The position numbers and the translations under genes were made by a program. From the NCBI GenBank assembly GCA_028286805.1, contig JAQBQW010000025.1, positions 1 to 35,215 of the forward strand: a stretch of 35,215 nucleotides of DNA. The letters run 5' to 3'. The notes under the pieces were generated by a model. It saw only the letters and a program-made list of their open reading frames with translations. It had not been told where the DNA came from and ran no database searches. The stretch is from Parcubacteria group bacterium. GTDB taxonomy: Bacteria > Patescibacteriota > Minisyncoccia > Phycocordibacterales > Zambryskibacteraceae. Of this stretch, positions 3,394 through 32,735 are shown piece after piece. The stretch's first letter is position 1. Each line of letters begins with the position of its first letter.

Positions 3394-3399
3394 TCTTTC

Positions 3400-4927: not shown

Positions 4928-4936
4928 AATATATGG

Positions 4937-4945: not shown

Positions 4946-5011
4946 CACGTTGACGCATATTTAATTCACTTGTATCGTAATGATAGAACCCTAACCTGGA
5001 GGACGTGCGCC

Positions 5012-5305: not shown

Positions 5306-5306
5306 T

Positions 5307-5335
5307 GCCAGCACTATGTTGGTACTTTTTATTTT
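5307..5335 (+). terminator. weak intrinsic terminator
   Basis: GCCAGCA-cta-TGTTGGT (two G:U pairs) followed by ACTTTTTATTTT. Confidence 0.35.
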
Positions 5336-5403
5336 GCTTTTTTATATAGAAAGAGTAATGTGAATTTAGATCCATTCTATCTTCCCCTTCAACGAAGGTT
5401 CCC

Positions 5404-7372: not shown

Positions 7373-7396
7373 GTCCTGTCCTTTGTATATAAAATA

Positions 7397-7405
7397 TGCT
7401 ATAAT
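7397..7405 (+). promoter_or_regulatory. extended -10 promoter of the infC operon
   Basis: TGcTATAAT at 7397..7405, 24 nt upstream of the TTG start at 7430. Confidence 0.5.
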
Positions 7406-7429
7406 ACCAACACTAAACCAACAGAGACT

Positions 7430-7936
7430 TTGCAAACCACTCGTATTAACCAGCGCATCACCTCACGCGAACTCCGCGTTATTGGCCCAACAGGTGAAAA
7501 CTTTGGAGTTATCTCACTCGAAGAAGCTCTAAAAAAGGCGGCTGAATTCGACCTCGATCTTATCGAGATCTCCCCTAATGCCATTCCTCCGATCGCAAAG
7601 ATTGCGGATTTCGGCAAATACCAATACGAAGAGAATAAGAAGCAGAAAGTGGCTAAATCTAAAGCCCACTCGGTTGAGGTGAAGAACGTTCAGATCAAGC
7701 TTGGAACTGGAGACCATGACCTCTCTCTTAAAGCCAAGAAAGCCTCTGAATGGCTTGGCGAAGGAAACAGGGTAAAAGTGGACCTTTTCCTCCCCGGACG
7801 TGCCAAATACCTCGATGAGAAGTTCCTCAGAGAACGCATTGAACGGTTCCTCAAACTCCTTACCGTAGCCCACAAAGTGGCTTCTTCCCCGGTCAAAAGC
7901 CCTAAGGGTATGACTATTATTGTTGAGAAGGCATAA
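7430..7936 (+). CDS. infC: translation initiation factor IF-3
   Basis: 168 aa (INQRITSRELRVIGPTGENFGVISLEEALKKAAEFDLDLIEISPNA...). First gene of the canonical infC-rpmI-rplT order. The start codon at 7430 is TTG. Confidence 0.93.
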   Translation: MQTTRINQRITSRELRVIGPTGENFGVISLEEALKKAAEFDLDLIEISPNAIPPIAKIADFGKYQYEENKKQKVAKSKAHSVEVKNVQIKLGTGDHDLSLKAKKASEWLGEGNRVKVDLFLPGRAKYLDEKFLRERIERFLKLLTVAHKVASSPVKSPKGMTIIVEKA

Positions 7937-12686: not shown

Positions 12687-13958
12687 TTAGTATTCCCGAG
12701 CTGAAACCTGCGCGTCTATCTTCTTCAAGAGATCAATAACTACTGAAACAACGATAAGGAGAGCTGTTCCTCCGATAGCCAGAGACTGGATACCAGTTAA
12801 TCCGCGAACAATGAGAGGCAAGACTGCAATACCGCCAAGGAAGAGCGCTCCAACGAGGGTAAGGCGGGTAAGGATGTTTGAGAGGTATTCAGCGGTAGGC
12901 TGTCCGGGGCGAATGCCGGGGATAAAGGCACCGGATTTCTGGAGGTTCTGGGAGATCTGGTCTGGATCAAAGGTAATGGCGGTGTAGACGTAAGTAAACG
13001 CTACAACCAAGATAAAGTATGCGGCACCGTAGAACCACTGGTTTGCCCAAATACCGAGAAGGGTTGTGGCAAAGCTTTTCACACTAACCGAAGCCGAGTT
13101 AGCCAAGAACTGCAGAATAACCTGAGGGAACAAGAGAATAGAAAGAGCGAAGATGATAGGCATCACTCCGGATTGATTCACTCGAAGAGGAAGGTATGTC
13201 GAACCTCCGCCCACGGTTCCCTGTCCGCGGATTTGTTTAGCATAGGTAACAGGAACCGGACGTTCTCCTTCGGAGACAATGACCACGCCGAGAATCACAA
13301 GGATAATGGCAACCAACGCCGCAATGTATATTGGAAGTTTGGAGGGATCGTATGTGAAGAAAAGCTGTCCGATGGTTGCGGGCAAACGCGAAACGATACC
13401 GGCAAAGATAATGAGGGAAATTCCGTTTCCAACTCCGTATTCGGAGATGAGTTCTCCGATCCAGACGACCAAGAGAGATCCGGCTGTGACAATCAAGAGA
13501 TCAACAACTAAAGTTGTAAAGGAAAGCGGAGGAAGGGCTCCTTGTTTCTGGAAAAGCGTAATGAAAGCGTAACCCTGTAGGAGTGCCAAAGGAACGGTCA
13601 GCATGCGGGAGTATTGGGCAAAGCGTCGGCGTCCGGCATCCCCTTCTTCCTGATACATGGCTTTGATCTTTGGAACCATGACGGTCAACAACTGCATAAT
13701 AATCGAAGCTGTGATGTATGGGCTCACCCCGAGCATGATAATGGAAAGGCTCGAAAGACCTCCTCCGGAGAACACATTCAAAAGTGAGAGGAGCTGGTTA
13801 CCGGAGAAGAGGCTCTGCAATCGCGCGGGATCGACTCCGGGAATTGGAATAACTGCAAGGATTCGGGTAATAACAAGGAAACCGAGGGTCGCAAGGATCC
13901 TGGTTCTGAGAAATGCATCTCCGAACACGAGGCTGAGCTTTTGTGTAAACGCTTTCAT
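12687..13958 (-). CDS. secY: preprotein translocase subunit SecY
   Basis: 423 aa, about ten TM segments, canonical position after rplO. Confidence 0.97.
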   Translation of the reverse strand: MKAFTQKLSLVFGDAFLRTRILATLGFLVITRILAVIPIPGVDPARLQSLFSGNQLLSLLNVFSGGGLSSLSIIMLGVSPYITASIIMQLLTVMVPKIKAMYQEEGDAGRRRFAQYSRMLTVPLALLQGYAFITLFQKQGALPPLSFTTLVVDLLIVTAGSLLVVWIGELISEYGVGNGISLIIFAGIVSRLPATIGQLFFTYDPSKLPIYIAALVAIILVILGVVIVSEGERPVPVTYAKQIRGQGTVGGGSTYLPLRVNQSGVMPIIFALSILLFPQVILQFLANSASVSVKSFATTLLGIWANQWFYGAAYFILVVAFTYVYTAITFDPDQISQNLQKSGAFIPGIRPGQPTAEYLSNILTRLTLVGALFLGGIAVLPLIVRGLTGIQSLAIGGTALLIVVSVVIDLLKKIDAQVSAREY

Positions 13959-16305: not shown

Positions 16306-16491
16306 TTACCAAGAAGATTTCTTAATACCCGGGATCTTGCCTTCGTTGGCGAGCTCTCTAAAGCAAATACGGCAGAGGTCAAAGTCTCGCATGTATCCTC
16401 GTCCGCGGCCGCATTTGAAGCAGCGATTAGTAGCCCGAGTGCTGAACTTAGGCGTCTTTTTGGATCTTGCGATTACTGATGTTTTTGCCAT
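16306..16491 (-). CDS. rpsN: 30S ribosomal protein S14, zinc-ribbon (type Z) form
   Basis: 61 aa with [20 protein letters not shown] (CxxC...CxxC). Confidence 0.93.
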
Positions 16492-16523
16492 TTGAAATAA
16501 AAAGGCTCGAAAGCCGTTCCGTA

Positions 16524-16552
16524 GAGCTTATCAAGAGAGGGGTGGGTTGTCA
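16524..16552 (-). promoter_or_regulatory. sigma70-type promoter driving rpsN and downstream spc genes
   Basis: Minus-strand TTGACA (16552..16547), 17 nt, TGaTAAGCT (-10 at 16529..16524). The 32-nt leader contains GGCT-ttcg-AGCC followed by TTTTTATTT. Confidence 0.55.
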
Positions 16553-16574
16553 AATGAAGGTAGAAGTGCAAATA
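16546..16574 (+). promoter_or_regulatory. divergent promoter for the 75-aa ORF
   Basis: TTGTCA (16546-16551), 17 nt, TGcAAATAT (-10 at 16569-16574). Its -35 overlaps the -35 of the rpsN promoter on the other strand. Confidence 0.4.
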
Positions 16575-16604
16575 TAGCCCCAGAACCCTCTACCACGGAG
16601 CCTC

Positions 16605-16832
16605 ATGTTTGTCACCAAAAAGACCTACACAGTCTATCGAAATCCCCGTGACAATGCAGCTCTCGGAATGGTCAACGAATTCCGAAGGAAAGGAATCACA
16701 ATCAGCCTAGTCCCCGTATTTGGTCTTCCCAAGCCTTACATGTGGACCGAAGGCAGAAAAGCTGAAGGACTCATGGAAATCCGTACGATTCTACATGGAT
16801 TGCTAGCACCTACCTCACATCACTCTTTGTGA
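16605..16832 (+). CDS. hypothetical 75-aa protein inserted in the spc operon
   Basis: A plus-strand ORF among minus-strand genes, with a GGAG 4 nt upstream of the ATG. Its layout loosely resembles a glutaredoxin-like fold but has no CxxC. Function unknown. Confidence 0.4.
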   Translation: MFVTKKTYTVYRNPRDNAALGMVNEFRRKGITISLVPVFGLPKPYMWTEGRKAEGLMEIRTILHGLLAPTSHHSL

Positions 16833-16862
16833 TATGGGGTATTTTTATTAAAAAACTGACGG

Positions 16863-17081
16863 TTATACCGCCAGTCGAGGAGAACAGAAGCTCATATATT
16901 GCTGCAAAATTCTCGCGAGCAATGAATCTTGAAGCACTCCTTGAAGAGTCTCTGGGATCTCGTAATCAGAGCCGGCTTCCATACTTTCACAAAGCTCTCG
17001 GAATGCTTGTCTGACCCGAATCTCTTGAGCTTCTGTCGTACAAGCGAAAACCATCTCCTCCCAATCAATACCGTCGTTCAT
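16863..17081 (-). CDS. hypothetical acidic 72-aa protein inserted in the spc operon
   Basis: ATG 17081 (MNDGIDWEEMVFACTTEAQEIRVRQAFRELCES...) is preferred. The track start at 17144 is a TTG that overlaps the rplE terminator hairpin. Confidence 0.4.
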   Translation of the reverse strand: MNDGIDWEEMVFACTTEAQEIRVRQAFRELCESMEAGSDYEIPETLQGVLQDSLLARILQQYMSFCSPRLAV

Positions 17082-17114
17082 AAATCTCCCGGAAAGAGTG
17101 TTGTTTCCTAAATC

Positions 17115-17140
17115 AAAACTACCCCTTTCGGAGTAGTTTT
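17115..17140 (-). terminator. intrinsic terminator after rplE
   Basis: Minus-strand AAAACTAC-tccgaaaggg-GTAGTTTT then GATTT, starting 8 nt after the rplE stop. Confidence 0.5.
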
Positions 17141-17147
17141 GCAAATA

Positions 17148-20309: not shown

Positions 20310-20648
20310 TTATTTTTTAGCGTCTGAGCCTTTTGCGGCCTTAGCAGCTGAGAGTTCGGCTTCCTTCTTCTTCATTTCGAGGTCTTTCTGCATCTTACCT
20401 CCGTGTTTGATGAACTTCCTGGTAAGGGAGAATTCACCCAATCGGTGTCCGATCATGTCTTCGGTAATGAATACCTCGACATGGTCCTTACCATTGTGCA
20501 CGCCGAAGGTAAAACCGATCATCTCGGGAGCAATCTGCGAAGCCCGGGCCCAAGTCTTAATAACGCCGGTGGTTCCGGGTTTCTTTCCTTCGATTTTCTT
20601 CATTACTCGAGGGTCGACGTATGGGCCTTTTTTGGCTGAGCGTGTCAT
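20310..20648 (-). CDS. rpsS: 30S ribosomal protein S19 (with Lys/Ala-rich C-terminal tail)
   Basis: ATG 20648 ([19 protein letters not shown]...) is the conserved S19 N-terminus. The extra 41 codons in track ORF 20310..20771 cover the promoter and an upstream terminator. Confidence 0.93.
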
Positions 20649-20684
20649 ATAAGAAAAGTAAAAGCTCCGAGAGAGCTTCGAGAT

Positions 20685-20713
20685 ATAGTATAGAAATGAG
20701 GGAGGAATGTCAA
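20685..20713 (-). promoter_or_regulatory. sigma70-type promoter re-starting the S10/spc operon at rpsS
   Basis: Minus-strand TTGACA (20713..20708), 17 nt, TACTAT (20690..20685). The 36-nt leader has an AAGCTC/GAGCTT hairpin. Confidence 0.55.
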
Positions 20714-20730
20714 ACTTACTTTTTGTACAA

Positions 20731-20768
20731 ACGAAAACCCCACGAAAACCGATGAGGTAATCGTGGGG
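20731..20768 (-). terminator. intrinsic terminator of island gene C
   Basis: Minus-strand CCCCACGA (20768..20761) / TCGTGGGG (20745..20738) stem with a 15-nt loop, then TTTTCGTTTG. Confidence 0.55.
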
Positions 20769-20792
20769 CAATGCCCCGGTGGAGCCTGCCGC

Positions 20793-21548
20793 CTAGGCGG
20801 ACTTGCGCTTCTTCCCCTGCTTCTTCTCCACAACCTGACGCCTGGCTGCGCTACTGGCACGGATCTGCGTCCGGGTGCCACGACGCTTACGCCGATGAAC
20901 AGGAGCAGTGTCCAGCGAAACCTTGTTGGCCTGGGCGGGTGGCTGGTAGCCAACCCGAGAAACCAACTCACAGTTCGCTTCGCCGACCTTGTTGTCCAGA
21001 TCATAGGAATATTCCCCCACGAGACGGACAATCCAGGTCTGTCCGACTTCCGGCTGCGGTCCGGCCTTTGTGGGTCGGAGCGTTGCGAGAATCCCGAGGA
21101 TGTTCACGTAGGCGATCACTTCGACGCCCGAACGGACAAACGTAACCGACACCTTGAAGGGCTTCTCGTCCTTGAAACGTCCCTTCGAAATCATCGGGGT
21201 CACGGGCTTTGTCGCGACGACCTTGCTCGGCTTCTTGATCCGCGGCTCCTCCTTCTTCGCTGGCGGAGCCGCGAGAATCGGAACTGGAGCCTTGATCGAG
21301 GCGGGCTTGGGTGCGGGCTTCTTGATCGGGGTCAACTCGTGCACGTCGACAGTGATGAGCTGGAAGTTCGGCGTGTTGACGATCCTGAGCCGCTCGATTC
21401 CGCGACACCGTTGTCCCTCCACAGGCTGGAGCGTCGTGTAGTCATCCAGGATGAACACGAAATCCACTCCATCCTTCTGCTCTTCCATCTTGAGCTGGGG
21501 ACCACCCTTTGAAAGGTTGGTCTTCATCTGGAAAACGAAGTCGCGCAT
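20793..21548 (-). CDS. orphan protein C of the GC-rich island (two small domains, Pro/Ala/Lys linker, Arg/Lys tail)
   Basis: 251 aa from ATG 21548 (MRDFVFQMKTNLSKGG...), with AAGGTG 5 nt upstream. The track start at 21584 is a TTG. The linker is PIKKPAPKPASIKAPVPILAAPPAKKEEPRIKKP and the tail is HRRKRRGTRTQIR...KKQGKKRKSA. No recognisable family. Confidence 0.6.
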   Translation of the reverse strand: MRDFVFQMKTNLSKGGPQLKMEEQKDGVDFVFILDDYTTLQPVEGQRCRGIERLRIVNTPNFQLITVDVHELTPIKKPAPKPASIKAPVPILAAPPAKKEEPRIKKPSKVVATKPVTPMISKGRFKDEKPFKVSVTFVRSGVEVIAYVNILGILATLRPTKAGPQPEVGQTWIVRLVGEYSYDLDNKVGEANCELVSRVGYQPPAQANKVSLDTAPVHRRKRRGTRTQIRASSAARRQVVEKKQGKKRKSA

Positions 21549-21617
21549 GTCGGCACCTTGCCCTATTGGGCGGTTATGCTGCAAGAAAACAAGAACTGCA
21601 AACGTGGTACTGGGTTA

Positions 21618-21646
21618 ATACTATCACATAATTAAACTATTGTCAA
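21618..21646 (-). promoter_or_regulatory. sigma70-type promoter of island gene C
   Basis: Minus-strand TTGACA (21646..21641), 17 nt, TGaTAGTAT (-10 at 21623..21618). Confidence 0.55.
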
Positions 21647-21652
21647 TATATG

Positions 21653-21680
21653 AAAAAGGCCGGGGTCAAGGACTCCAGCC
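21653..21680 (-). terminator. intrinsic terminator of island gene B
   Basis: Minus-strand GGCTGGAGTC-ctt-GACCCCGGCC hairpin (21680..21658) then TTTTTC. Confidence 0.5.
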
Positions 21681-21690
21681 GTCAAATTCA

Positions 21691-22194
21691 CTAACTAATG
21701 ACGCTGATCCCGCCATGATAGAGGGTCAGAATCTGAATTTCACTCCTGTGCACATTCAAACGATGCCGAGGATTCGAGAAGCGAATCACCGCATGAGGCG
21801 GACGCCTCCTCGTTCCAGCAAAGTGGTACTCCTCCACGCTATAAATGCGATCCCCTGGCGTTGGATGGTCTGGGTCGGACAACCTATCCCCGAGCACTTC
21901 CTTGATATGGTCGTCAACGAAGTGCCCCGATGCATCCCGATCAAAAATGATGATGGGTTCATCGGCGTGGGAAAATCCGCACTTTCGCTTGAGCAGGCTT
22001 GTGATGGCATACCCATCGAGCACGAGCTCCCGCATGAAGTAACCAATATCCACGCTTGGAAGCTTTGTCACAGCCACGGGATCGGACAGGGCGCTTTTCC
22101 GCAGCCAGTTATTGCAACCGGAACTGCAAGAAAATGTCCAGTAGATTCTTGGATGACTGATGAGAGTTTTGTCTCGGACTTCGTGCGAATACAT
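21691..22194 (-). CDS. orphan protein B of the GC-rich island
   Basis: 167 aa (MYSHEVRDKTLISHPRIYWTFSCSSGCNNWLRK...IIIFDRDASGHFVDDHIKEVL...). GAGGAC sits 6 nt upstream of the ATG, and the ORF is bracketed by its own promoter and terminator. A longer in-phase antisense ORF, 21640..22278(+), also exists (see findings). Confidence 0.5.
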   Translation of the reverse strand: MYSHEVRDKTLISHPRIYWTFSCSSGCNNWLRKSALSDPVAVTKLPSVDIGYFMRELVLDGYAITSLLKRKCGFSHADEPIIIFDRDASGHFVDDHIKEVLGDRLSDPDHPTPGDRIYSVEEYHFAGTRRRPPHAVIRFSNPRHRLNVHRSEIQILTLYHGGISVIS

Positions 22195-22242
22195 GAATCG
22201 GTCCTCAAATCGGGTGATACTCAGCTGAGTGAGTCTGATAAA

Positions 22243-22271
22243 ATAGTAGCAGGTAAATTGAAGAGTGTCAA
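22243..22271 (-). promoter_or_regulatory. sigma70-type promoter of island gene B
   Basis: Minus-strand TTGACA (22271..22266), 17 nt, TGcTACTAT (-10 at 22248..22243). The leader contains the perfect palindrome ACTCAGCTGAGT (22219-22230). Confidence 0.55.
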
Positions 22272-22290
22272 TTTTTGATTTTTACGATAC

Positions 22291-22318
22291 AAAAAAAGAC
22301 CGAGAACATTTCTCGGTC
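22291..22318 (-). terminator. intrinsic terminator of island gene A
   Basis: Minus-strand GACCGAGA-aatgt-TCTCGGTC followed by TTTTTTT. Confidence 0.65.
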
Positions 22319-22345
22319 TGGACCCAGTACAGTCCCTGGCTGTAC

Positions 22346-22897
22346 TTAACGAGCTACCGCCTTGTGACGCCGACGCTCCTGAATCCACTGAGGCACTAGT
22401 GCCATCATGTGGTCTGGGAGATTGTCGAATGCCACTCGGACCATTCCCACACTGCGGATGTCGCAGTTGTGGAGCGGGTCCGACACCTCCTTGTCTTCCC
22501 CTTCCTTGACGAGCGTATTCAGGACGAACCTGCCGCCGTTCAGGTCGAGACTTGGAGTTGCAATCGAGGGCTCGACTGGTCGGTAGCACCAAATGAAGAT
22601 GTGCCGCGGCACGCCTTGATTCAGTTCGCTGGTGGCTGGGACTGCGTCGTTGAGACTGATCTCGACGCACCAGGCCTTGCCGCCCGCCTTCTTCTCCTTG
22701 GCCTTCTCGGGATCGCCGACGAAGGGATCGAGGAGTTCCTTGCGCTGTTCGAGAGCGACTTCCAGCTTGTCATACTCGTAGATGAGCATGATCTGGCGGT
22801 CCTTGCGATGCGCGCGGTTGAGGCGGAAGCCGTAGTTACCAAGCATGCTCTCGAGGTCGATCATGTCGACGGGGTGGTTCAGGCGAACGAGACGCAC
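22346..22897 (-). CDS. orphan protein A of the GC-rich island
   Basis: 183 aa from GTG 22897 (VRLVRLNHPVDMIDLESML...), with AGGAGA (22909..22904) 6 nt upstream. The track start at 22975 is the TTG of the -35 hexamer itself. No recognisable family. Confidence 0.6.
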   Translation of the reverse strand: MRLVRLNHPVDMIDLESMLGNYGFRLNRAHRKDRQIMLIYEYDKLEVALEQRKELLDPFVGDPEKAKEKKAGGKAWCVEISLNDAVPATSELNQGVPRHIFIWCYRPVEPSIATPSLDLNGGRFVLNTLVKEGEDKEVSDPLHNCDIRSVGMVRVAFDNLPDHMMALVPQWIQERRRHKAVAR

Positions 22898-22946
22898 GGT
22901 ATTTCTCCTATCTAGGGATGACTGGGAACGATCTGCTTCTGGGGTA

Positions 22947-22975
22947 ATACTAGCACGATGATAGGTAAATGTCAA
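22947..22975 (-). promoter_or_regulatory. sigma70-type promoter of island gene A
   Basis: Minus-strand TTGACA (22975..22970), 17 nt, TGcTAGTAT (-10 at 22952..22947). Confidence 0.6.
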
Positions 22976-22997
22976 GTAACGAACCTGACTGTACTAG

Positions 22998-24512
22998 CTA
23001 TGAAATTGGTGACCACAATTGTTCAGAAAGACCCAATTCGAGAACCTTACGGAATTCAAAACGGGGAATATTAGAGGTAGGGACATCCTGGGGGTTGGGT
23101 CCCCCATTCAAGAGCGAGTTGGTTGCCGTGTCGTAATACCATTCAGGGAATTGTGGCAATGTGCCATGAGCTGCTAATGCAATAGGATCTTCATCAAGGG
23201 AAATATTTTTAGCTTCAGCTTCTTGAAGCCTGATAAGTACAATGAGCGAACGTAGGTCTGGACGTTTTTTCCCCGTGAGAATATTTATATGGCCAGTGGT
23301 TAAGCGAATAGCAACAACATCAAAATTACCTCCTAGATTTGAACGCAAGAACCCGGCAATACTTGGATTATCGGACTCGATAATCATACATTTAAGTTTT
23401 ACTCCTCTTTGGTATACGAAAAATTCTTCGGCCTTGCCGCTTTGTCGTTTTTCTTGAACTTCTTGAGGCATTTCAAAAGTACGTTTTTCTTCCTCAATAC
23501 ACACAGCCTCGAAAATGGGCAGTACAAGATCGATAATTTTCTGCTGGTCCTTCGGATATGTTTTGTTTAGAGTTCCAATAAGACCGGAGATACCGAAAGC
23601 TCTATCAAGAGAATCCAGGGAAATAGTTCCTTTTCCATAGAAGTCACATCTCTCAGCGAGTTGGATAAGCTTATGCAACGCAGGATTACTTCGCACGCCT
23701 AAATACTCCGCAATTAAACCAGATGCTGTAGTCTGCAAAGATCGAGTATGGTGATCGAACGCTCCCTTTCCAATATCAATCAATATGATCCCCTTTTTTG
23801 CTAATGTTTCCTCACTCTCTCCTTCGGGCAACCGGGGAAGCAACATATAATCAGCATCTTTAATACCTGGAAAAAACTTCTCGCCGAAGCGCTTGAGGAT
23901 CATAATGGCAATTATGGTGTCAGTCTGTGGTCTCGTCGGTAATGCAATACTTTTAACAGATCTCGGTTCGCTCGATGGAAAAATAATTGCGTACAATGAA
24001 TTTCTCAAATCTTCATCCGAGTTAACACCGATTCCACTGAGTGCAGACTCCTTGTCAGTACTCTTTCCAAATAAGGTAACATGTGCAGGTGGTACTTCGA
24101 GATTAATTTGGGCATACTCCTGCAATCTGGTTACGAAATCTTTAATTTCCGGAACATCTACCATTTGAATAATGGTTTCTCTTTTTTCTTTTCCGGTTTT
24201 CGAAGAATAATTTTTGAGAAGATGATAGAACTCATCCTTTGCTTCAATATTCCAATTAATACTTTCTGCTATTGATTTTACTTGGTGTAGAGCTTCCTCT
24301 TTTGGAATTCCTTTGGATTCGAAATGGGTCGATAATTTAGCTCCGACAGAATAACCTATGAGAGTAATGTGAAGTTCTTCCTTTTTTAAAAAATGGCTCT
24401 TTTGAGCATATGTAACAACATATTCTGGAATCTGCAACGATTCTGCAGATAAAGAGAGGAGAATGGAAAATTTACTCTCGTTGATTATGATTCGTTCGAA
24501 TTTCAGGTTCAT
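22998..24512 (-). CDS. two-domain protein: N-terminal 2H phosphoesterase-like domain fused to a DHH-motif (MYG1/UPF0160-like) domain
   Basis: 504 aa. Two H-x-T motifs in the usual context and spacing, LHITLIGY (H48) and AHVTLFGK (H144), mark the 2H (LigT/cyclic phosphodiesterase) superfamily. Downstream, ILIDIGKGAFDHHT resembles the metal site of MYG1/DHH-type hydrolases. G+C is host-like. Confidence 0.6.
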   Translation of the reverse strand: MNLKFERIIINESKFSILLSLSAESLQIPEYVVTYAQKSHFLKKEELHITLIGYSVGAKLSTHFESKGIPKEEALHQVKSIAESINWNIEAKDEFYHLLKNYSSKTGKEKRETIIQMVDVPEIKDFVTRLQEYAQINLEVPPAHVTLFGKSTDKESALSGIGVNSDEDLRNSLYAIIFPSSEPRSVKSIALPTRPQTDTIIAIMILKRFGEKFFPGIKDADYMLLPRLPEGESEETLAKKGIILIDIGKGAFDHHTRSLQTTASGLIAEYLGVRSNPALHKLIQLAERCDFYGKGTISLDSLDRAFGISGLIGTLNKTYPKDQQKIIDLVLPIFEAVCIEEEKRTFEMPQEVQEKRQSGKAEEFFVYQRGVKLKCMIIESDNPSIAGFLRSNLGGNFDVVAIRLTTGHINILTGKKRPDLRSLIVLIRLQEAEAKNISLDEDPIALAAHGTLPQFPEWYYDTATNSLLNGGPNPQDVPTSNIPRFEFRKVLELGLSEQLWSPIS

Positions 24513-24531
24513 TATTGTTCAGTATACAACA

Positions 24532-24557
24532 AATCTCCCCGCTTTCGCGGGGAGATT
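24532..24557 (-). terminator. strong hairpin between the membrane-protein gene and the 504-aa gene (weak U-tract)
   Basis: Minus-strand AATCTCCCCGC-gaaa-GCGGGGAGATT followed by TGTTGT. The stem is perfect but the T-run is poor. Confidence 0.4.
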
Positions 24558-24589
24558 GCCTATTCGGGTATTATCTAGCTATACCAGAA

Positions 24590-25291
24590 TTAGTTGTGAT
24601 CGTGATGCTTGTCGCTCATCTCGCCTCGAAGACGTTCGATGAAACGGGATGCTGCATCCTGTCCGCCAAGACCGAATGAAAGTCCGAGGGCAAGAGAGAT
24701 AGCAATAACGATACCGGTGAAGAGAGTCTGTGAGAATGCTGCTGCGATACCGAGCTGCGAAAGCGCAACCAAGATAGCAAAGATCCAAACTGCCCATTTC
24801 GAAAGCGAACCTGCGAAATTTGCTGAATGAACTCCTGCTGTTCTTGCAGCAGTAACCACTACTCGTTCGATGATGTCCCCTACTACACCTCCGATGAGAA
24901 GGATAAGAGCGGCGACAATAACACGAGGAAGGTACGCGATGACCACTTCCTGGAGGAAGAGGTTAACCTGTGTAAGACCGAGAAGATCAAATACAGGAAT
25001 AAGAACTACCAAGATAACAAACCATTTGACCAAACCACCGATGAACGCACCTGCATCGAGGTTGATTCCACCTCGGCGAAGGAACGAGTCAAATCCTGCA
25101 CGTCGGAGCGCTTCATCAACGCGGAGCGAACGGAAGATCTGCCAGATAGCGCGGCCCAAGAGAGAACCGATAAGCCATCCGAGAATAAGGATAATGATCG
25201 CAATGATCAGGTTTGGGACAAAGTTCACAACTCCGATCCAGAGGTTCTGGAACGAAAGAGCCAACACTTCTCCCCAATTGTTAAGCAACAT
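24590..25291 (-). CDS. membrane protein with conserved-TM-helix repeats (CmpX / MscS N-terminal-like)
   Basis: 233 aa. Repeated hydrophobic helices are each preceded by short amphipathic segments (NFVPNLIIAIIILILGWLIG, LVKWFVILVVL, PRVIVAALILLIGGVVG, LSKWAVWIFAILVAL). The family call is by pattern only. Confidence 0.6.
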   Translation of the reverse strand: MLLNNWGEVLALSFQNLWIGVVNFVPNLIIAIIILILGWLIGSLLGRAIWQIFRSLRVDEALRRAGFDSFLRRGGINLDAGAFIGGLVKWFVILVVLIPVFDLLGLTQVNLFLQEVVIAYLPRVIVAALILLIGGVVGDIIERVVVTAARTAGVHSANFAGSLSKWAVWIFAILVALSQLGIAAAFSQTLFTGIVIAISLALGLSFGLGGQDAASRFIERLRGEMSDKHHDHN

Positions 25292-25397
25292 GTGTTACAA
25301 AAATGGTGTGCGAATGCACTTATTGGTAATGTACCTCTTTAGGGTAACGAATATAGTATACACCTTGTTCTTCCTTTCCAGGCAAGGGTGTGGATAG

Positions 25398-25955
25398 TTA
25401 TACCCCCAGTTTGTTCACAATTTTAATATGATTGAAATCGAGAATGTCTCTGATCAGCTTGTCATACAATCCGTATCTATACTGAAAATCCGCCGTTTCA
25501 AAGGAGGCATACCGAAGCTCTCTTCCGAGTTCTGCTTCCATGCTCTGAATAGCTGAGACGAGTACGCCTTTTTTAATATGATCCCCCACAACCAACAGAT
25601 CGACGCGCGCTTCTGAATCATGCAGAAACACTCCCGAGAGAAGAATCATCTTGATAACACCTGCCCGAGCGATCTTTTTAATAATTTCCTTGTCTGTCAG
25701 AGGACTGGCGTCGATAAGAAAGTGTTCGATAGCGGTCAAATATGGATAACTTTTATTTAACACATACCCCTTAGCCATCTTTTTAACTAGTCCGGCTACC
25801 GCAAGGTTTCTTAATTCTCTCGAAACAGTTGGTCTCTTCTCTTGGGTTCGGTCTGATACGGTCTGGGCATCAAAAGCAGCTTCTGGATTAAAAACAAAGA
25901 GGCGCATGACCTTTACCTTGGCCACTCCTCCGAATATATGGGAAACGGATTTCAT
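25398..25955 (-). CDS. winged-helix DNA-binding protein with a C-terminal domain weakly reminiscent of minimal nucleotidyltransferases
   Basis: 185 aa. The N-terminus (VSDRTQEKRPTVSRELRNLAVAGLVKK) looks like an ArsR/MarR-type wHTH. LSGVFLHDSEARVDLLVVGD loosely resembles the G[SG]...DxD NTase strand pair. Confidence 0.5.
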   Translation of the reverse strand: MKSVSHIFGGVAKVKVMRLFVFNPEAAFDAQTVSDRTQEKRPTVSRELRNLAVAGLVKKMAKGYVLNKSYPYLTAIEHFLIDASPLTDKEIIKKIARAGVIKMILLSGVFLHDSEARVDLLVVGDHIKKGVLVSAIQSMEAELGRELRYASFETADFQYRYGLYDKLIRDILDFNHIKIVNKLGV

Positions 25956-25961
25956 CTGGCC

Positions 25962-25967
25962 ATTCTA
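25962..25967 (-). promoter_or_regulatory. candidate -10 box with leaderless geometry
   Basis: Minus-strand TAGAAT (25967..25962), then exactly 6 nt before ATG 25955. No SD. Confidence 0.35.
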
Positions 25968-25995
25968 CACATATACCCCTGTCTGCGCCAGCGCA

Positions 25996-26020
25996 ACAAA
26001 AAACCGCCCGGAGGCGGTTT
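25996..26020 (-). terminator. intrinsic terminator after rplL
   Basis: Minus-strand AACCGCC-tccg-GGCGGTT followed by TTTTTG. Confidence 0.7.
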
Positions 26021-26039
26021 CATGTGTGAAACAGGGAGA

Positions 26040-26441
26040 TTACTTAAATGTAACCTTTCCTCCAGCTTCTTCAATTTTCTTTTTGAGTTCTTCTGCTTCT
26101 TCTTTCTTCATGTCTGCTTTGAGCATAGAAGGAGCTGCATCAACGAGGTCTTTTGCTTCCTTGAGACCAAGTCCGAGAACTTCCTTCACCACTTTGATGA
26201 CGGCGATCTTCTGCGCACCTCCGTCTGTAAGTTCAACGCCCATGCTTGATTTAGCTTCTTCGGCTTCACCGGCTCCTGCTGCAGGACCTGCGGCTGCAAC
26301 TGCTGTTGCTGAAACTCCGAATTTCTCTTCGAAGATCTTAACGAGTTCGTTGAGGTCGAGTACTGACATCTCTTCGATTTCTTTTACGATCTTTGCAAAC
26401 TTTGCGGGAACCGCTACGTCTGCTTTCTGTGCTTCGTCCAT
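26040..26441 (-). CDS. rplL: 50S ribosomal protein L7/L12
   Basis: 133 aa with an Ala-rich hinge ([17 protein letters not shown]) and the conserved C-terminal domain ([24 protein letters not shown]). Confidence 0.96.
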
Positions 26442-26459
26442 TGTATTAATGTTAATTGA

Positions 26460-26945
26460 TTAAGATTTCTTTGCTGCTATCTGTCCGAGCGCGATAGCGA
26501 AACGCTGTATTGGAGAATTGATGATATTCACGAACATTCCTCGAAGAACCGGCGTGGTTGGGATGGTGGCGATGCCTTCCATCTCAGATTTTGTCATATA
26601 TCTTCCTTCAAACATTCCTCCAAGGATCTTTAATCCTTCGGGGAATTTTTTCTGGAATCCATATACACCTCGAGCCGGAGCGATGAGGTCTTCAGACCAC
26701 GCAAGCGCGAGTTCTCCGGTGAGTTCAGGCTGTACACCTTCGAACTTATCACCGAGGATACGTTTGGTTAAAGATTTCTTGGCAACTGAATATGAAACTC
26801 CCTCATTCTTGAGAGATTTTCGCATTGCTGTAGCTTCGGAAACTTTAAGACCGTGGAAGTTGACGAAGACCAATGATTTCGCGTCTTTGAGAGCTGCACT
26901 GAGCTTATCTACAATTGCTTCCTTCTTGGCTTTGGATATTGCCAT
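26460..26945 (-). CDS. rplJ: 50S ribosomal protein L10
   Basis: 161 aa (KAKKEAIVDKLSAALKDAKSLVFVNFHGLKVSEATAMRKSL...), immediately upstream of rplL. Confidence 0.95.
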   Translation of the reverse strand: MAISKAKKEAIVDKLSAALKDAKSLVFVNFHGLKVSEATAMRKSLKNEGVSYSVAKKSLTKRILGDKFEGVQPELTGELALAWSEDLIAPARGVYGFQKKFPEGLKILGGMFEGRYMTKSEMEGIATIPTTPVLRGMFVNIINSPIQRFAIALGQIAAKKS

Positions 26946-27067
26946 GCTGTTAATGGTTAACGAACAAAATAGACCCGTATAAGGCCTCGACTTCCAATAT
27001 GTAAATGGAGTGAGAGAGATCTCGGGAGGACTTATGGATGCCTCCTGTCTTAGACCTTACGGGGGTT

Positions 27068-27095
27068 ACTTTACCTTAATTTGTGAAAAATGCAA
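27068..27095 (-). promoter_or_regulatory. possible promoter of rplJ-rplL
   Basis: Minus-strand TTGCAT (27095..27090), 16 nt, TAAAGT (27073..27068), followed by a leader of about 120 nt. The match is weaker than the other promoters listed. Confidence 0.3.
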
Positions 27096-27097
27096 AT

Positions 27098-27127
27098 AAA
27101 AAAAGCCGGGCGCAATCTGCGCTCGAC
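27098..27127 (-). terminator. intrinsic terminator of the 104-aa cassette gene
   Basis: Minus-strand GTCGAGCGC-agatt-GCGCCCGGC (one G:U, one mismatch) followed by TTTTTTT. Confidence 0.55.
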
Positions 27128-27134
27128 TCAACCT

Positions 27135-27449
27135 TCACTGTGTATACCCGAAGGTTCTTTTTACGAAGCTAACCTTGTCCGCCGTCGACACATTCTTCAA
27201 TCGAACGTGTGTTCGGACTTCGATCAGCCTATCTACCAGTCTTTCTCCTTCAAGACATCGATTCAGACCTTGTCGTACAGCCAGGTCGCAGATCTTGGGG
27301 GCCAGATACGGATTCTTTAGAAGTGCTTGTCTCGCCAACTTACTGAAAGTTGAGATTTTACACCTTGCCTCCAGTAAATGTAGGAGTTTGTATGCACTTC
27401 TTCTTTTCTTTGAATCTACTGGTCTCTGCAGGGTCTGAGCCGATGCCAT
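27135..27449 (-). CDS. orphan basic 104-aa protein (GC-enriched single-gene cassette between rplB and rplJ)
   Basis: ATG 27449 (MASAQTLQRPVDSKKRRSAYKLLHLLEARC...), with GAGGTG 6 nt upstream. It has its own promoter and terminator. A sampled line (27241-27300) is 31/60 G+C. No recognisable family. Confidence 0.55.
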   Translation of the reverse strand: MASAQTLQRPVDSKKRRSAYKLLHLLEARCKISTFSKLARQALLKNPYLAPKICDLAVRQGLNRCLEGERLVDRLIEVRTHVRLKNVSTADKVSFVKRTFGYTQ

Positions 27450-27489
27450 CGAGCACACCTCGGTGAGAGTATGATCTATTCCTCAGACG

Positions 27490-27518
27490 ATACTCTCACA
27501 AGAGAAACATGAAGTCAA
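27490..27518 (-). promoter_or_regulatory. sigma70-type promoter of the 104-aa gene
   Basis: Minus-strand TTGACT (27518..27513), 17 nt, TGaGAGTAT (-10 at 27495..27490). An 8-bp inverted repeat GAGAGTAT/ATACTCTC (27497..27490 and 27472..27465) includes the -10. Confidence 0.55.
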
Positions 27519-27544
27519 AAAAGAATCCCACCTTGCGGCGGGAT
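27517..27544 (-). terminator. intrinsic terminator directly after rplB
   Basis: Minus-strand ATCCCGCC-gcaa-GGTGGGAT (GNRA loop) followed by TCTTTTTT, beginning 5 nt after the rplB stop. Confidence 0.7.
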
Positions 27545-27549
27545 CTTCT

Positions 27550-28389
27550 TTATTTCTTTCCAACCTTTCGTCTTCGAACGATAAACTTGTTTGAGTATTT
27601 TTTGGATCGGCGAGATTTCTGTCCCTTTCCTGTAGGTTTTCCGTATACGGAGATTGCACGCTTGCGTCCTCGACCCTGTCGTCCTTCTCCTCCTCCGTAT
27701 GGGTGGTCCACTGGGTTCTGCGCAGTTCCTCGAACTGTTGGGCGAATACCGAGCCATCGGGAACGTCCGGCTTTACCGAGGTTTGTTAATCGGTTTTCAT
27801 CATTTGAAACTTCTCCGATAGATGCCCATGCATTTTCAGGAACCTTACGAACTTCGCTTGATGGCATCTTGATGTCCACGTATCCCGCATCTTTCGCAGA
27901 GACTTCGGCGTAGTTGCCTCCTGAACGAGCTATTTTAGCTCCTCCTTGGTACTTAAGTTCAATATTGTATACAAATGTACCAACGGGGATATTCTTCAAA
28001 GGAAGGCGGTTTCCTGGGGTAAGGGCGGCGTTTTCGGAAGCGATAAAGGTATCTCCAACCTGTGCGGATTTGTGGATCAAAATGTATCGTCTTTCTCCAT
28101 CTTTGTATGCCACGAGTCCGATGAAACCGGAACGGTTTGGATCGTATTCAACGGTTTTAATGGTAAAAGGAATGTTTAATTTATTGTATGTGAAATCGAT
28201 ATCTCGGAAGAGTCTCTTGTGTCCACCTCCTTTGTGTCGAGTGGTAATACGTCCGGTGTTGTTTCGTCCGTTTGCTCGGCGAAAACCACGGGTCAAAGAT
28301 TTGACGGGTTCGCTCGACGTGATGAATTTCTTGAATTCAACGTGAGAAGTCTGGCGGCTCGATGGCGATGTTGGTTTGTATCTTTTCAT
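27550..28389 (-). CDS. rplB: 50S ribosomal protein L2
   Basis: 279 aa (…GRNNTGRITTRHKGGGHKR…, …HPYGGGEGR…), typical L2. Confidence 0.97.
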   Translation of the reverse strand: MKRYKPTSPSSRQTSHVEFKKFITSSEPVKSLTRGFRRANGRNNTGRITTRHKGGGHKRLFRDIDFTYNKLNIPFTIKTVEYDPNRSGFIGLVAYKDGERRYILIHKSAQVGDTFIASENAALTPGNRLPLKNIPVGTFVYNIELKYQGGAKIARSGGNYAEVSAKDAGYVDIKMPSSEVRKVPENAWASIGEVSNDENRLTNLGKAGRSRWLGIRPTVRGTAQNPVDHPYGGGEGRQGRGRKRAISVYGKPTGKGQKSRRSKKYSNKFIVRRRKVGKK

Positions 28390-30433: not shown

Positions 30434-31627
30434 TTAGGCGACGATCTTGGTCACAACTCCCGCTCCCACAGTCTTACCTCCTTCTCGGATGGTGAAGCGC
30501 TGCTGGTCTTCAATGGCAACTGGGGCTACCAATTTAACTTTGAAGGTAACGGTGTCTCCTGGCATAACCATTTCAACTCCTTCGGCCAAAGTAACTTCTC
30601 CGGTAACGTCAGTTGTACGAACGTAGAACTGAGGTTTGTATCCGGTGAAGAATGGAGTGTGGCGTCCGCCTTCTTCTTTCTTCAAGATGTAGACTTCTGC
30701 TGTGAATTCAGTGTGAGGAGTAACGGAACCTGGTTTTGCAAGCACCTGTCCTCGGTGGAGGTCTTCTTTCTTAACACCTCGGAGAAGGATTCCGGCGTTG
30801 TCTCCGGCTTGTCCCTGCTGAAGCTGCTTGTTGAACATTTCGATACCGGTGATAGTTGTCTTCGAAGTATCTTTGATACCGACGATTTCAACTTCTTCAC
30901 CAACCTTACAAACACCTCTTTCAATACGTCCGGTTACCACTGTTCCACGACCTTCGATAGAGAAGATATCTTCGATAGGCATGAGGAAAGGCTTGTCGAG
31001 TTCACGAACAGGCATTGGAATGTATGTGTCGAGAGCATCTGCAAGTTCAAGGATCTTCTTGGACCATTCGTCTTCGTTTGATGTAGCTTCGAGTGCCTTA
31101 AGAGCTGAACCTCGGATAACGGGAGCATTTTCTCCGTCGAAATCGTATTTCTTCAAAAGGTCGCGAACTTCTTCTTCAACGAGGTCGATGAGTTCAACAT
31201 CAGGAACCATGTCACATTTGTTCAAGAAAACGATGATTTTAGGCACTCCAACCTGCTTAGCAAGGAGAATGTGCTCACGAGTCTGAGGCATAACACCGTC
31301 AGTAGCGGCAACCACGAGGACTGCACCGTCCATCTGAGCTGCACCGGTAATCATGTTTTTGATGTAGTCGGCGTGTCCAGGGGCGTCGATGTGAGCGTAG
31401 TGACGTGCGTCAGTTTCGTATTCTGAGTGTGAAAGAGAAATCGTAATACCTCGAGCCTTTTCCTCAGGGCTCTTGTCGATATCGTTAACAGACTTAACAG
31501 TTGCCATCTTACCCGCGCGGTGAAGCACGTTAAGGATTGCGGCGGTGAGGGTGGTCTTACCGTGGTCAACGTGTCCGATGGTACCTACGTTGACGTGTGG
31601 CTTTGATCGATCAAATTCTGCGGCCAT
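30434..31627 (-). CDS. tuf: elongation factor Tu
   Basis: 397 aa with [15 protein letters not shown] and NKCD GTPase motifs. Confidence 0.98.
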
Positions 31628-31808
31628 AATTTATGTAATAAGTAATGAGTAAATTTAAGTGAGTTCTGAAACGGAGGGAAAGCGCGAGAACACTGTTTCT
31701 CTTCGGTTCAGAAGCGAACAAACCGCTTAACAGAGCCTTTTTTATTCGGTCCAATAGAGAAAATCCCTCAAAGAGCCAAATCAAAACGACACGTAATGCG
31801 TAACGGCT

Positions 31809-31836
31809 ATCTTAGCAAAGGGCTGGGAATAGTCAA
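31809..31836 (-). promoter_or_regulatory. sigma70-type promoter of tuf / S10 operon
   Basis: Minus-strand TTGACT (31836..31831), 16 nt, TGcTAAGAT (-10 at 31814..31809), followed by a leader of about 180 nt. Confidence 0.5.
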
Positions 31837-31891: not shown

Positions 31892-32164
31892 TTAGAGCGT
31901 CCAGCGAAGCTCTTGCTTGTCGAAAACTACACCCCGCAGGCACCTTACAATGCGCCATTCGATGCCCGCGCTCTTGAGAACCCGGTTTATGTGGTTCGTG
32001 TTGTTTCGTAAAGCCACACGCCGCCCCTGCCACACCTTCACGGAAATTCGATTGCCGTGATCGAGGCAGGAAATGATCTCGTCATGTCTCCTTTCGGGAA
32101 ACAGGCTTCGAATCCGATCGAGAGTTTCCCCTGTCGGATACTTCCCGTCTGAGATATCGCTCAT
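31892..32164 (-). CDS. orphan 90-aa protein (second gene of the overlapping pair)
   Basis: MSDISDGKYPTGETLDRIRSLFPERRHDEIISCLDHGNR... Its ATG overlaps the upstream stop (ATGA, 32164..32161). No recognisable family. Confidence 0.5.
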   Translation of the reverse strand: MSDISDGKYPTGETLDRIRSLFPERRHDEIISCLDHGNRISVKVWQGRRVALRNNTNHINRVLKSAGIEWRIVRCLRGVVFDKQELRWTL

Positions 32165-32670
32165 TGAGACACGGAGTGAGAGGGTGGAACGTGAGATTGA
32201 ACGGATGCAGGTTCGTGGTTGAGTTTCTCAGCTTCCTCGAGAAGCTTTCTGAACTTGAGGTATGCGGCCCGAAGATTCCTTACTCGGGCGGAACTGCTCA
32301 TCTTCACCCATATCCAGAATGCATCCATCATTTGCTGGCGAATAGCAACCTTTGGACGGATGCGCGCGGTACGTTCCTTCATCAGCTCATGGAACGATTG
32401 TGAAGTGAGCACTATGCGTTGCTTCCGAAGAAGGTAAAGAAAAGACTGCGCAAGCTGTCTCTTCAACGACGCGAGGGAAACGAAATCTTCGGGTGACCGC
32501 AAATTCCTGCCTTCGAATCCTTCTGCAATTTTCTTTGCATTGAAGACAAAGTTAGGAATCTGGATCTCATCCAGAAGGATGACGTTGTCGATCTCGTCTT
32601 GCAGCCTTTTCAAAGCTACTTTTACCTCATTCGCGTGATACTGAGAAGGTGAACTCACATCTCCCTCCAT
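32161..32670 (-). CDS. orphan 169-aa predicted helical protein (first gene of the overlapping pair)
   Basis: MEGDVSSPSQYHANEVKVALKRLQDEIDNV... has heptad-like, Arg/Lys-rich helices. Its own promoter lies 38 nt upstream. No recognisable family. Confidence 0.5.
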   Translation of the reverse strand: MEGDVSSPSQYHANEVKVALKRLQDEIDNVILLDEIQIPNFVFNAKKIAEGFEGRNLRSPEDFVSLASLKRQLAQSFLYLLRKQRIVLTSQSFHELMKERTARIRPKVAIRQQMMDAFWIWVKMSSSARVRNLRAAYLKFRKLLEEAEKLNHEPASVQSHVPPSHSVSQ

Positions 32671-32707
32671 GCAACCAAGGTGATAAATCGTGTGCAGACC
32701 GGAGAGG

Positions 32708-32735
32708 ATTATCTATTAAAACAGCCTTAAGTCAA
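32708..32735 (-). promoter_or_regulatory. sigma70-type promoter of the two-gene module
   Basis: Minus-strand TTGACT (32735..32730), 16 nt, GATAAT (32713..32708). The -35 begins 3 nt after the stop of the 572-aa gene. Confidence 0.5.

Follow-up and report, generated by a model that had tools for sequence, protein, structure and literature searches.

Genomes of the candidate phyla radiation (CPR, or Patescibacteria) are tiny and hold mostly unknown genes, and how genes are gained and exchanged in them is poorly understood. A 35,215-nt contig from one such genome (JAQBQW010000025.1 of assembly GCA_028286805.1), the whole of which we call the window, raises the question in a concrete form: what are the three genes, here named A, B and C, that make up an island rich in guanine and cytosine (GC) at positions 20731-22994, directly upstream of the ribosomal protein gene rpsS, and how did they come to stand there? 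A preliminary description of this DNA had taken them for a recently acquired module of orphan genes, each with its own promoter, Shine-Dalgarno (SD) site and terminator. Our analysis leads to a partly different answer. The island is probably the GC-rich part of an exchangeable accessory slot, which is bounded by an MscS-like gene on one side and by the rpsS promoter, at its -35 box, on the other and whose contents would be swapped by recombination through the flanks. We identify the host as a CPR bacterium akin to the Zambryskibacteria: the best match of its rpsC product, ribosomal protein S3, has 88% identity, and many close matches come from metagenome-assembled genomes labelled Zambryskibacteria or Parcubacteria.

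A GC-rich island of three genes

The computed GC content of 20731-22994 is 0.547, with 0.452 in the upstream and 0.448 in the downstream flank. Among 569 other segments of 2264 nt the mean was 0.453 (sd 0.015, maximum 0.491), so that the island lies about 6 sd higher, and a 500-nt profile reached 0.50-0.59 only over 20.5-23.0 kb and stayed at 0.42-0.46 elsewhere. Four hand counts of G+C from which the island had first been recognised (39/60 and 37/60 inside it, 24/60 and 25/60 in flanking genes) came out identical on recounting. The shift is present in the GC profile, in GC at third codon positions (GC3) and in codon usage. Host genes have a GC3 of 0.34-0.57, as against the values of A, B and C in Table 1, and a codon model trained on host genes scored A at -0.20 and C at -0.10 vs. 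+0.32 for rpsS.

The three minus-strand open reading frames (ORFs) of 183, 167 and 251 aa after start correction were reproduced. The opposite strand of the island also holds long ORFs; the antisense frame is open because GC3-rich genes avoid the codons TTA, CTA and TCA. When the codon model was instead trained on related genes from the slots described below (cargo genes), the sense strand was preferred for A (+0.36 vs. +0.12 antisense) and for C (+0.39 vs. -0.01), and no strand preference was seen for B, the putative promoter, SD site and terminator of which all lie on the minus strand. A Logan contig assembled independently (SRR13312974) matches the window exactly over 20604-26203 and covers all junctions, so the island is not an assembly chimera. 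Rfam, at gathering and at permissive thresholds, detected no RNA family within the island, and there is no tRNA gene in the window.

The gene caller behind the Logan contig took antisense shadow ORFs over A and B (22409-22915 and 21715-22278, both on the plus strand, 168 and 187 aa), and in a related locus (L083, 10007-10699, minus strand) a C-family gene was called on both strands. Such calls put wrong-strand translations into protein catalogues, and families such as B may therefore escape protein-only searches. Antisense calling, to which automatic gene callers are sometimes prone, hides such families from the catalogues.

The island lies in a slot of variable content

The gene order rplB, L10, L7/L12, helix-turn-helix (HTH) gene, MscS-like gene, gap, rpsS, rplV, rpsC is conserved in 35 loci. 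In the window the L7/L12, L10, HTH and MscS-like genes occupy 24590-28389 on the minus strand and interrupt the usual S10 operon between rplB and rpsS. The preliminary description had framed the comparison with relatives around the whole rplB-rpsS interval; that framing does not hold, because the interval conservedly contains these four genes and only the gap between the MscS-like gene and rpsS varies. With the gap in its place, the expected empty sites are found. It measures 134-190 nt, and is empty, in about 21 related species, measures 0.8-2.8 kb in about 12, and reaches 5.4 kb in one case.

The edges of the slot can be read from a sister species in the same sample (L090), whose slot holds a C-family gene only. 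Nucleotide homology to this species stops at 24567 in the window and restarts at 20768, and within these boundaries, which enclose a slot of 3.8 kb, the island makes up the GC-rich two-thirds. The rest is taken up by a further gene, p504 (Table 1).

Turnover of the contents is clearest in a pair of close relatives, L003 and L006, which have 97% identity over five flanking proteins and 81-86% identity in flank DNA. Their slots show no detectable similarity. BLASTP groups the cargo into the families FA (A and its counterparts in L006 and L019), FX, FY and a helical FZ; the slot of L003 holds an FX gene with an antisense TruD gene, that of L006 a p504 homologue with an FA gene. DNA homology between the two ends about 35 nt past the MscS stop codon, and the -35 hexamer of the rpsS promoter marks the exact point where it restarts. 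At least six different slot contents occur across the clade, that of the window (p504, A, B, C) being the fullest. A filled slot with a gene of the A/FX/FY type is present in each of the eight species closest to the window; in most of the more distant species the slot is empty. One locus, L008, has an FY gene within an otherwise empty-slot clade. The content of the window is the union of modules that are seen apart elsewhere (p504 with A; C), plus B. Together with the difference between L003 and L006, this union favours the replacement and accretion of whole units.

Pfam detected no integrase or transposase among ten slot and neighbouring genes, and no terminal repeats, or flanking direct or inverted repeats, marking a mobile element were found. 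Strain variants of the slot were sought by look-ups of the exact rpsS and MscS proteins, which led to the same contig and no other. Between L003 and L006, homology is also lost at other intergenic positions of the ribosomal-protein supercluster, namely rplB-L10, L12-HTH and two farther downstream (2067-3590, 4749-5587, 12791-13065 and 18204-19156 in L003). There may be several variable slots rather than one.

Table 1. Coordinates of the slot, its genes and their predicted signals in the window
Feature	Position	Strand	Description
Whole variable slot	20769..24566	.	3.8 kb; holds p504, A, B and C; MscS-like 3' end to rpsS promoter
Terminator of MscS-like gene	24532..24557	-	11-bp stem; left-hand slot edge
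p504	22998-24512	-	504 aa, AT-rich (0.40 GC); slot cargo, always paired with an A-family gene
Promoter of A	22947..22975	-	TTGACA-N17-TGcTAGTAT
SD of A	22904..22909	-	AGGAGA, 6 nt 5' of GTG
Gene A	22346-22897	-	GTG start, 183 aa, GC3 0.755
Terminator after A	22290..22319	-	10-bp stem and U7; scan match 22319..22297; fold z -3.1
Promoter of B	22243..22271	-	TTGACA-N17-TGcTACTAT
Palindrome in B leader	22219..22230	.	ACTCAGCTGAGT, 12 nt; one of 13 in window
SD-like site of B	22201..22206	-	GAGGAC, 6 nt 5' of ATG
Gene B	21691-22194	-	ATG start, 167 aa, GC3 0.595
Terminator after B	21653..21680	-	GGCUGG...CCGGCC, 6-bp stem, 11-nt loop, UUUUU; -15.9 kcal/mol, z -3.4 (folding)
Promoter of C	21618..21646	-	TTGACA-N17-TGaTAGTAT
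SD-like site of C	21554..21559	-	AAGGTG, 5 nt 5' of ATG
Gene C	20793-21548	-	ATG start, 251 aa, GC3 0.746
Terminator region after C	20735..20793	-	two hairpins and U-run; scan match 20758..20737; -31 kcal/mol, z -4.0
rpsS operon promoter	20685..20713	-	TTGACA-N17-TACTAT; kept in relatives; right-hand slot boundary

Cargo genes have a common composition and common expression signals

The deviant composition of A, B and C recurs in slot cargo elsewhere. In 12 species, cargo genes have a GC content of 0.54-0.63 irrespective of that of the host (0.43-0.55) and a GC3 of 0.6-0.9, and the main cargo genes are co-oriented with rpsS in most filled slots. Nearly all are arranged in the same way: a terminator is followed by a promoter of the form TTGAC(A/T)-N17-TGnTAnnAT, a 60-80 nt leader and an SD site of the GGAGG type. 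The GC3 excess is common to every cargo family in every host compared. Since it is kept at 30-45% protein identity, the anomaly has outlasted the saturation of synonymous sites, and this persistence, the spread over all families and hosts and the failure to detect a donor lineage together mark the composition as a maintained trait and not as evidence of recent import. We infer that high GC3 and SD use are maintained traits of the slot gene families rather than signs of recent foreign origin. The trait could stem from selection tied to SD-dependent high expression, from residence in an unsampled shared gene pool or, at a recombination hotspot, from biased gene conversion. A GC step by itself is no proof of recent transfer.

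In each of the three units of the window, a GC3-rich ORF with its SD site stands behind a predicted extended -10 sigma-70 promoter and a leader (45-65 nt) and is closed by a predicted intrinsic terminator. The promoters lie exactly at the positions first proposed for them, each with 10/12 consensus positions and a TG before the -10 box. They and the rpsS promoter make up the four top sigma-70 matches in a scan of 12 kb, and the same four are the only matches to TTGACA-N17-TAnnAT in 35 kb, where 0.03 would be expected by chance. Promoters of the class TTGAC(A/T)-N17-TGnTAnnAT also head the rpsS and tuf operons across the wider Paceibacteria, as well as an apparent third operon that starts with a 61-codon ORF. 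Promoters of this host class, and presence or absence of the genes among relatives, bear out the preliminary view of an accessory module made of three independent and, as far as promoter sequence can tell, strongly transcribed units.

The noted likeness between the promoter regions of A and C amounts to 19/23 identical nt. Two cargo promoters of L002 (7402-7440 and 8425-8463) are almost alike as well, at 27/29 nt, with the likeness extending into the leader. In both pairs, the promoter regions may have been duplicated along with their units or may act as recombination joints.

SD motifs of A, B and C are present as described, and the host genes are indeed SD-poor, with an SD-like motif in about 4/41 other genes of the window. 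The linkage of native strong promoters, SD sites and high GC3 is unusual in an SD-poor CPR genome. For each gene a hairpin with a T-run had been claimed as its own terminator, and all three are supported by the scan, by folding or by both; the terminator after B was missed by the scan because its loop is 11 nt long. A perfect 12-nt palindrome in the leader of B exists but loses its description as operator-like: there are 13 such palindromes in the window and the fold of the leader has a z of +0.6 against shuffled sequences, so that, as an operator or a 5' hairpin, it stands out no more than chance would allow. Four perfect 12-nt palindromes lie within the 2.3-kb island, where about 0.8 are expected (20789, 22219, 22392 and 22601; CCGCCTAGGCGG, ACTCAGCTGAGT, GGCACTAGTGCC and GTGCCGCGGCAC); they are GC-rich and resemble restriction sites. 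Elsewhere in the window, the tuf promoter (TTGACT-N16-TGcTAAGAT at 31836) has an unusually long leader of about 180 nt (31627-31836, minus strand), to which Rfam gave no match at the gathering threshold.

Profile comparison connects the families FA and FY at 92% probability (E = 8e-7). None of FA, FX, FY and FZ has a match in Pfam, PADLOC or PHROGs, and the sole useful profile matches from Pfam, PHROGs, PADLOC and NCBIfam were TruD and DUF5667, both in the slots of other species. The FX family is irregular in its architecture: in the L003 member (7156-7722) the N- and C-terminal halves have changed places, so that it aligns with the rest of the family as a circular permutation, and the L014 member (6647-7188) consists of two abutting ORFs of 90 and 89 aa. 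In L015 the family is found at 7041-7649.

Unrelated cargo proteins of one genome have a common C-terminal motif. The pair in L022 (7616-8359 and 8524-9108) ends in ...RTRGRSVLAQLSA and ...RTRGREALSQISA, the pair in L037 (2490-3077 and 3223-3822) in ...EKGREILALLSA and ...ERGLEILKSLSG, and a further locus with the motif is L019 (123-734). The shared endings suggest a docking, sorting or degradation signal. A and B of the window have no such tail. A transfer-messenger RNA (tmRNA) gene lies at 3841-4239 on the plus strand of the window (Rfam, 85.7 bits; missed by ARAGORN), and its putative tag, read by hand from a GCA resume codon, is AKSVAKVISPFYTANDFQFAYARV, which is atypical in that the usual Ala-Ala end is absent. 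The C-terminal tails do not resemble this tag (...FAYARV), and we rejected them as tmRNA-tag mimics.

Homologues of A and C were found only within the lineage

A, B and C, joined end to end into one query, were searched exhaustively with HMMER against 1.84 billion representative proteins. This returned four relatives of A, seven of C and none of B, and no relative of any of the three outside the Zambryskibacteria lineage. A word-indexed search of 5.8 billion proteins returned C itself alone. Neither tblastn against 50,697 INPHARED phage records nor blastn against plasmid DNA gave a match, and pattern scans of IMG/VR viral contigs found no relatives, the C-family alignment being too variable for a pattern. 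No match to A, B, C or p504 was found in PHROGs, PADLOC, Pfam or NCBIfam, and a PDB sequence search with the family profiles gave nothing significant. Patterns of 8-mers from p504 found nothing in GTDB genomes and JGI metagenomes, and B was not found in the JGI metagenomes. The label of orphan genes therefore stands for B, for which no homologue was detected, and falls for A and C, for which distant homologues were.

Gene A, its possible paralogue B and its partner p504

Homologues of A are the four proteins returned by HMMER (P0003, P0008, P0010 and P0012) and genes in two loci (L006 and L019). In at least four other genomes a member of the family follows a p504 homologue and precedes rpsS, with 30-40% identity to A and a GC3 of 0.81-0.86. 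P0003 and P0008 have a p504 homologue on one side and rpsS on the other, the arrangement also seen in L006 and L019, and from these contexts the pairing of p504 with A recurs in five genomes. Homologues of p504 were found only in L006, L019, L088 and one JGI contig, each followed by an A-family gene, and the two genes co-occur with broadly parallel divergence. The composition of the pair is uneven. The A-family genes have kept their GC3 excess although the p504 gene next to them is AT-rich, and this holds over the five genomes; in L088, for example, an A-family gene with a GC3 of 0.86 stands beside a p504 homologue with a GC content of 0.45.

The AlphaFold2 model of A, built from a five-sequence alignment, is compact, with a predicted local distance difference test score (pLDDT) of 82 and a predicted template modelling score (pTM) of 0.81. 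Foldseek returned no structural neighbour for it (best E 1.4 in PDB and 0.5 in BFVD). Residues conserved in the family include R28, H30, K32, Q35, H99, R154, W171 and R175. A belongs to an alpha/beta family that is restricted to the lineage and whose modelled fold appears to be new.

When B was aligned to the A-family profile with hhalign, it scored 25.7 (E = 2e-3). Among the controls, 40 shuffled versions of B scored 12.9 ± 2.3 (maximum 19.6) and the antisense ORF 17.8. B is a probable, highly diverged paralogue of A, which we state with low confidence.

In p504 the motifs H48-I-T50, H144-x-T146 and D253-H-H255 are invariant in three homologues. Such motifs may point to a fusion of a 2H phosphoesterase with a DHH phosphoesterase; Pfam, NCBIfam and PDB returned no match to p504.

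Gene C and its predicted OB-like domains

The preliminary description had seen in C two small domains joined by a Pro/Ala/Lys-rich linker and followed by a basic tail, and the structure model agrees with it. A predicted beta-barrel domain (residues 1-72) is connected by a Pro/Ala/Lys linker (73-119) to a second domain (120-199) that resembles an oligonucleotide/oligosaccharide-binding (OB) fold, and an Arg/Lys tail (200-251) ends in a terminal Ala. In the AlphaFold2 model, from an eight-sequence alignment, the mean pLDDT is 77 and exceeds 90 in both beta domains, whereas linker and tail are disordered. The isoelectric point (pI) is 10.2 overall and 12 for the tail; a Lys/Arg-rich tail and an invariant C-terminal Ala are present in 8/8 aligned family members (C and seven relatives).

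OB folds dominate the top 50 Foldseek matches of C (HIN-200, RNase II S1/CSD, TRAM, RsgA, RPA), all of them weak, with a best E of 4.6e-3 and TM scores up to 0.28. Neither Pfam nor the PDB sequence search gave a sequence-profile match of C to an OB family. The earlier reading of two domains with an Arg/Lys tail fits the predicted OB-like fold, and C would most likely bind RNA or DNA, by way of two OB-like barrels and the basic tail of the model.

The C family is found at two places. It stands directly 5' of rpsS in L082, L086 and L090 and in the gap between fusA and tuf in L083, L084 and L085, and its genes have the same promoter type before rpsS as before tuf. In the window, the corresponding gap lies between a 572-aa unknown gene and tuf and holds a second small unit of about 0.5 GC (31893-32735, minus strand), with a TTGACT promoter near 32735, overlapping ORFs of 169 and 90 aa and a terminator near 31880; no link of these two ORFs to other cargo families was found. 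Between rplE and the Zn-type rpsN (16306-16491), a 650-nt stretch of the window (16492-17147) lacks annotation and has short ORFs only, of 93 aa on the minus strand and 75 aa on the plus strand; a JGI relative carries two genes there, of 345 and 87 aa.

Exchange through the flanks and its rivals

We hold the structural and evolutionary account of the slot with fairly high confidence. Homologous recombination in the conserved flanks would pass its contents from one Zambryskibacteria genome to another, with no need of an integrase or of repeats, and DNA uptake plausibly precedes this step; a relative has a ComEC homologue at a distance of about 10 kb from the slot. B would have arisen as a diverged copy of A, the two would share a new alpha/beta fold and act together with p504 beside them, and the products of the slot would be abundant cytoplasmic proteins. 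As to what these proteins do, an RNA- or translation-directed conflict or partner interaction, with phage or host, is proposed with low confidence.

Several points weigh against this account. Flank recombination is read from breakpoints in comparisons at the species level, and the promoters, the SD sites and the terminators are predictions from consensus sequences. The account gives no reason for the constant GC3 richness of the cargo. Apart from FA-FY, the superfamily links are weak (58% for FX-FY and 20% for FA-FX). The coding status of B depends on its putative transcription and translation signals and a weak profile score, the reading of p504 as an enzyme on inspection of motifs without profile support, and the OB assignment of C on Foldseek matches with an E of 4.6e-3 or above and a TM score of at most 0.28. 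The proposed biological role finds no support in PADLOC, PHROGs, Pfam or NCBIfam. Finally, an A/FX/FY-type gene is present in all eight clade members, so that part of the pattern could also come from vertical descent combined with extreme divergence.

Taken as the full explanation, vertical descent would mean that the genes are ancient residents that evolve so fast that orthologues look unrelated, with no horizontal exchange. A gene of the A/FX/FY type beside rpsS in 8/8 species, the FA-FY homology and the broadly parallel divergence of p504 and A are what such a history would leave. It is hard to reconcile with L003 and L006, whose nearly identical flanks enclose slots that differ in gene number and orientation and have no detectable similarity, or with the FY gene of L008 in a clade of otherwise empty slots, and we consider it unlikely.

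Recent horizontal transfer was the original interpretation: the genes would come from a GC-richer, SD-using foreign donor and would not yet have drifted to the composition of the host. A sharp GC step of 10 points, codon usage unlike that of the host, SD sites in an SD-poor genome and the absence of B and C from the genomes with p504 and A all look the part. The two protein searches, however, found no homologue outside the ribosomal-protein clusters of Zambryskibacteria, the promoters are of the host type, and the homologues of A and C in relatives sit in the same slots at 30-45% identity with the same GC3 excess. With no donor lineage detected, "recently acquired" is the part of the preliminary description that we would withdraw, and we regard a recent foreign source as improbable.

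Site-specific recombination might have inserted a mobile element here, be it a prophage remnant, true morons, a satellite or a miniature island. This would account for the fast turnover between close hosts, and the units fit the definition of a moron in having their own promoter and terminator and deviant GC (PMC3594210). Yet neither PHROGs nor the phage, IMG/VR and plasmid searches gave a match, there is no tRNA and there are no flanking repeats, core ribosomal genes form the flanks, and relatives throughout the lineage use the same slot. The probability that we would give to such an element is small.

No better placed is the idea that these are lineage-specific housekeeping proteins, associated with the ribosome or with translation and sited by function in the ribosomal-protein cluster. 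Their location before rpsS or tuf under promoters of the ribosomal-operon class would suit it, as would the modelled OB-like barrels and ribosomal-protein-like tail of C and the RNA-related character of other slot genes (TruD; the p504 motifs). But the genes are absent from most related species, terminators separate them from the operon, their contents are replaceable, and no ribosomal-protein profile of Pfam or NCBIfam matches them; such a role has little probability. An artefact, that is, an assembly chimera or non-coding GC-rich DNA with long ORFs driven by composition, is very improbable: the choice of opposite-strand ORFs at A and B by the Logan gene caller and the lack of a strand preference for B would agree with it, but the Logan contig is exact over all junctions, Rfam finds nothing in the island, and A and C have protein-level homologues, confident structure models and sense codon scores far above the antisense ones.

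Exchange of whole units through the flanks is the reading that we retain. A bolder reading, for which we see only a slim chance, is that Zambryskibacteria keep a private exchangeable gene set with promoters of ribosomal-operon strength, obligatory SD sites and selected GC3. In a cell otherwise devoid of SD sites, this set would amount to an expression channel of its own. Its products, with the new fold of A and B, tandem OB proteins and degron- or docking-like tails, would target RNA or the ribosome when the organism is in conflict with phages or with its partner cell. If this were true, the island would be an instance of an unrecognised class of CPR accessory system and not miscellaneous hotspot cargo.

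Comparison with known systems

We found no description of Zambryskibacteria gene slots in the literature and no paper on the accession of the sample, and the slot and its gene families appear undescribed. It is a precisely bounded exchange slot, free of integrases, within the most conserved gene cluster of the genome, and it is filled by lineage-private, "expression-ready" families whose composition and translation signals are systematically unlike those of the host. With the families defined, one of them with an apparently new fold, predictions about transcript ends, nucleic-acid binding and recombination breakpoints become testable.

Among single proteins, the OB-fold modules of HIN-200, RNase II S1/CSD, the TRAM domain of RumA/RlmCD, RsgA and RPA are the nearest to C as predicted, in that they too are small beta-barrels, of which the model of C has two, next to a strongly basic tail. 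C differs from them in its lack of a sequence-profile match, its weak structural scores, and its domain order and Pro/Ala/Lys linker, which are unique to it.

At the level of the locus, integron cassette arrays likewise place small, unrelated, exchangeable genes in tandem at one site. The slot has neither attC-like repeats nor an integrase, and, unlike such arrays, it has a promoter and a terminator for each gene. Defence islands and toxin-antitoxin loci resemble it in their small, fast-evolving genes of unknown function and patchy occurrence among relatives. They differ in that the slot gives no PADLOC match, holds separate units rather than bicistronic ones, and has no known toxin or antitoxin domain in Pfam.

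Phage morons come closer. A moron such as gene 15 of HK97 is transcribed from a promoter to a terminator of its own and departs from its neighbours in GC content (PMC3594210), and, like the units of A, B and C, morons are single genes between conserved genes with a patchy distribution in relatives. The slot differs in lying in a cellular ribosomal-protein cluster, flanked by rpsS and by MscS, L10 and L12 genes, where no phage genes or homologues were found, and in a GC excess that is common to all cargo across hosts and is kept at 30-40% protein identity.

Hotspots without mobile elements, which rely on recombination in the flanks, are an established category (Oliveira et al., 2017, PMC5635113). 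The slot is like them in its fixed interval between core genes, seen in 35 loci, in its rapid turnover, in the lack of an integrase, transposase or tRNA target and, probably, in its dependence on recombination in the flanks. What sets it apart from such hotspots is its place inside a ribosomal-protein supercluster in an ultra-small CPR genome and its filling by a few lineage-private families of uniform architecture.

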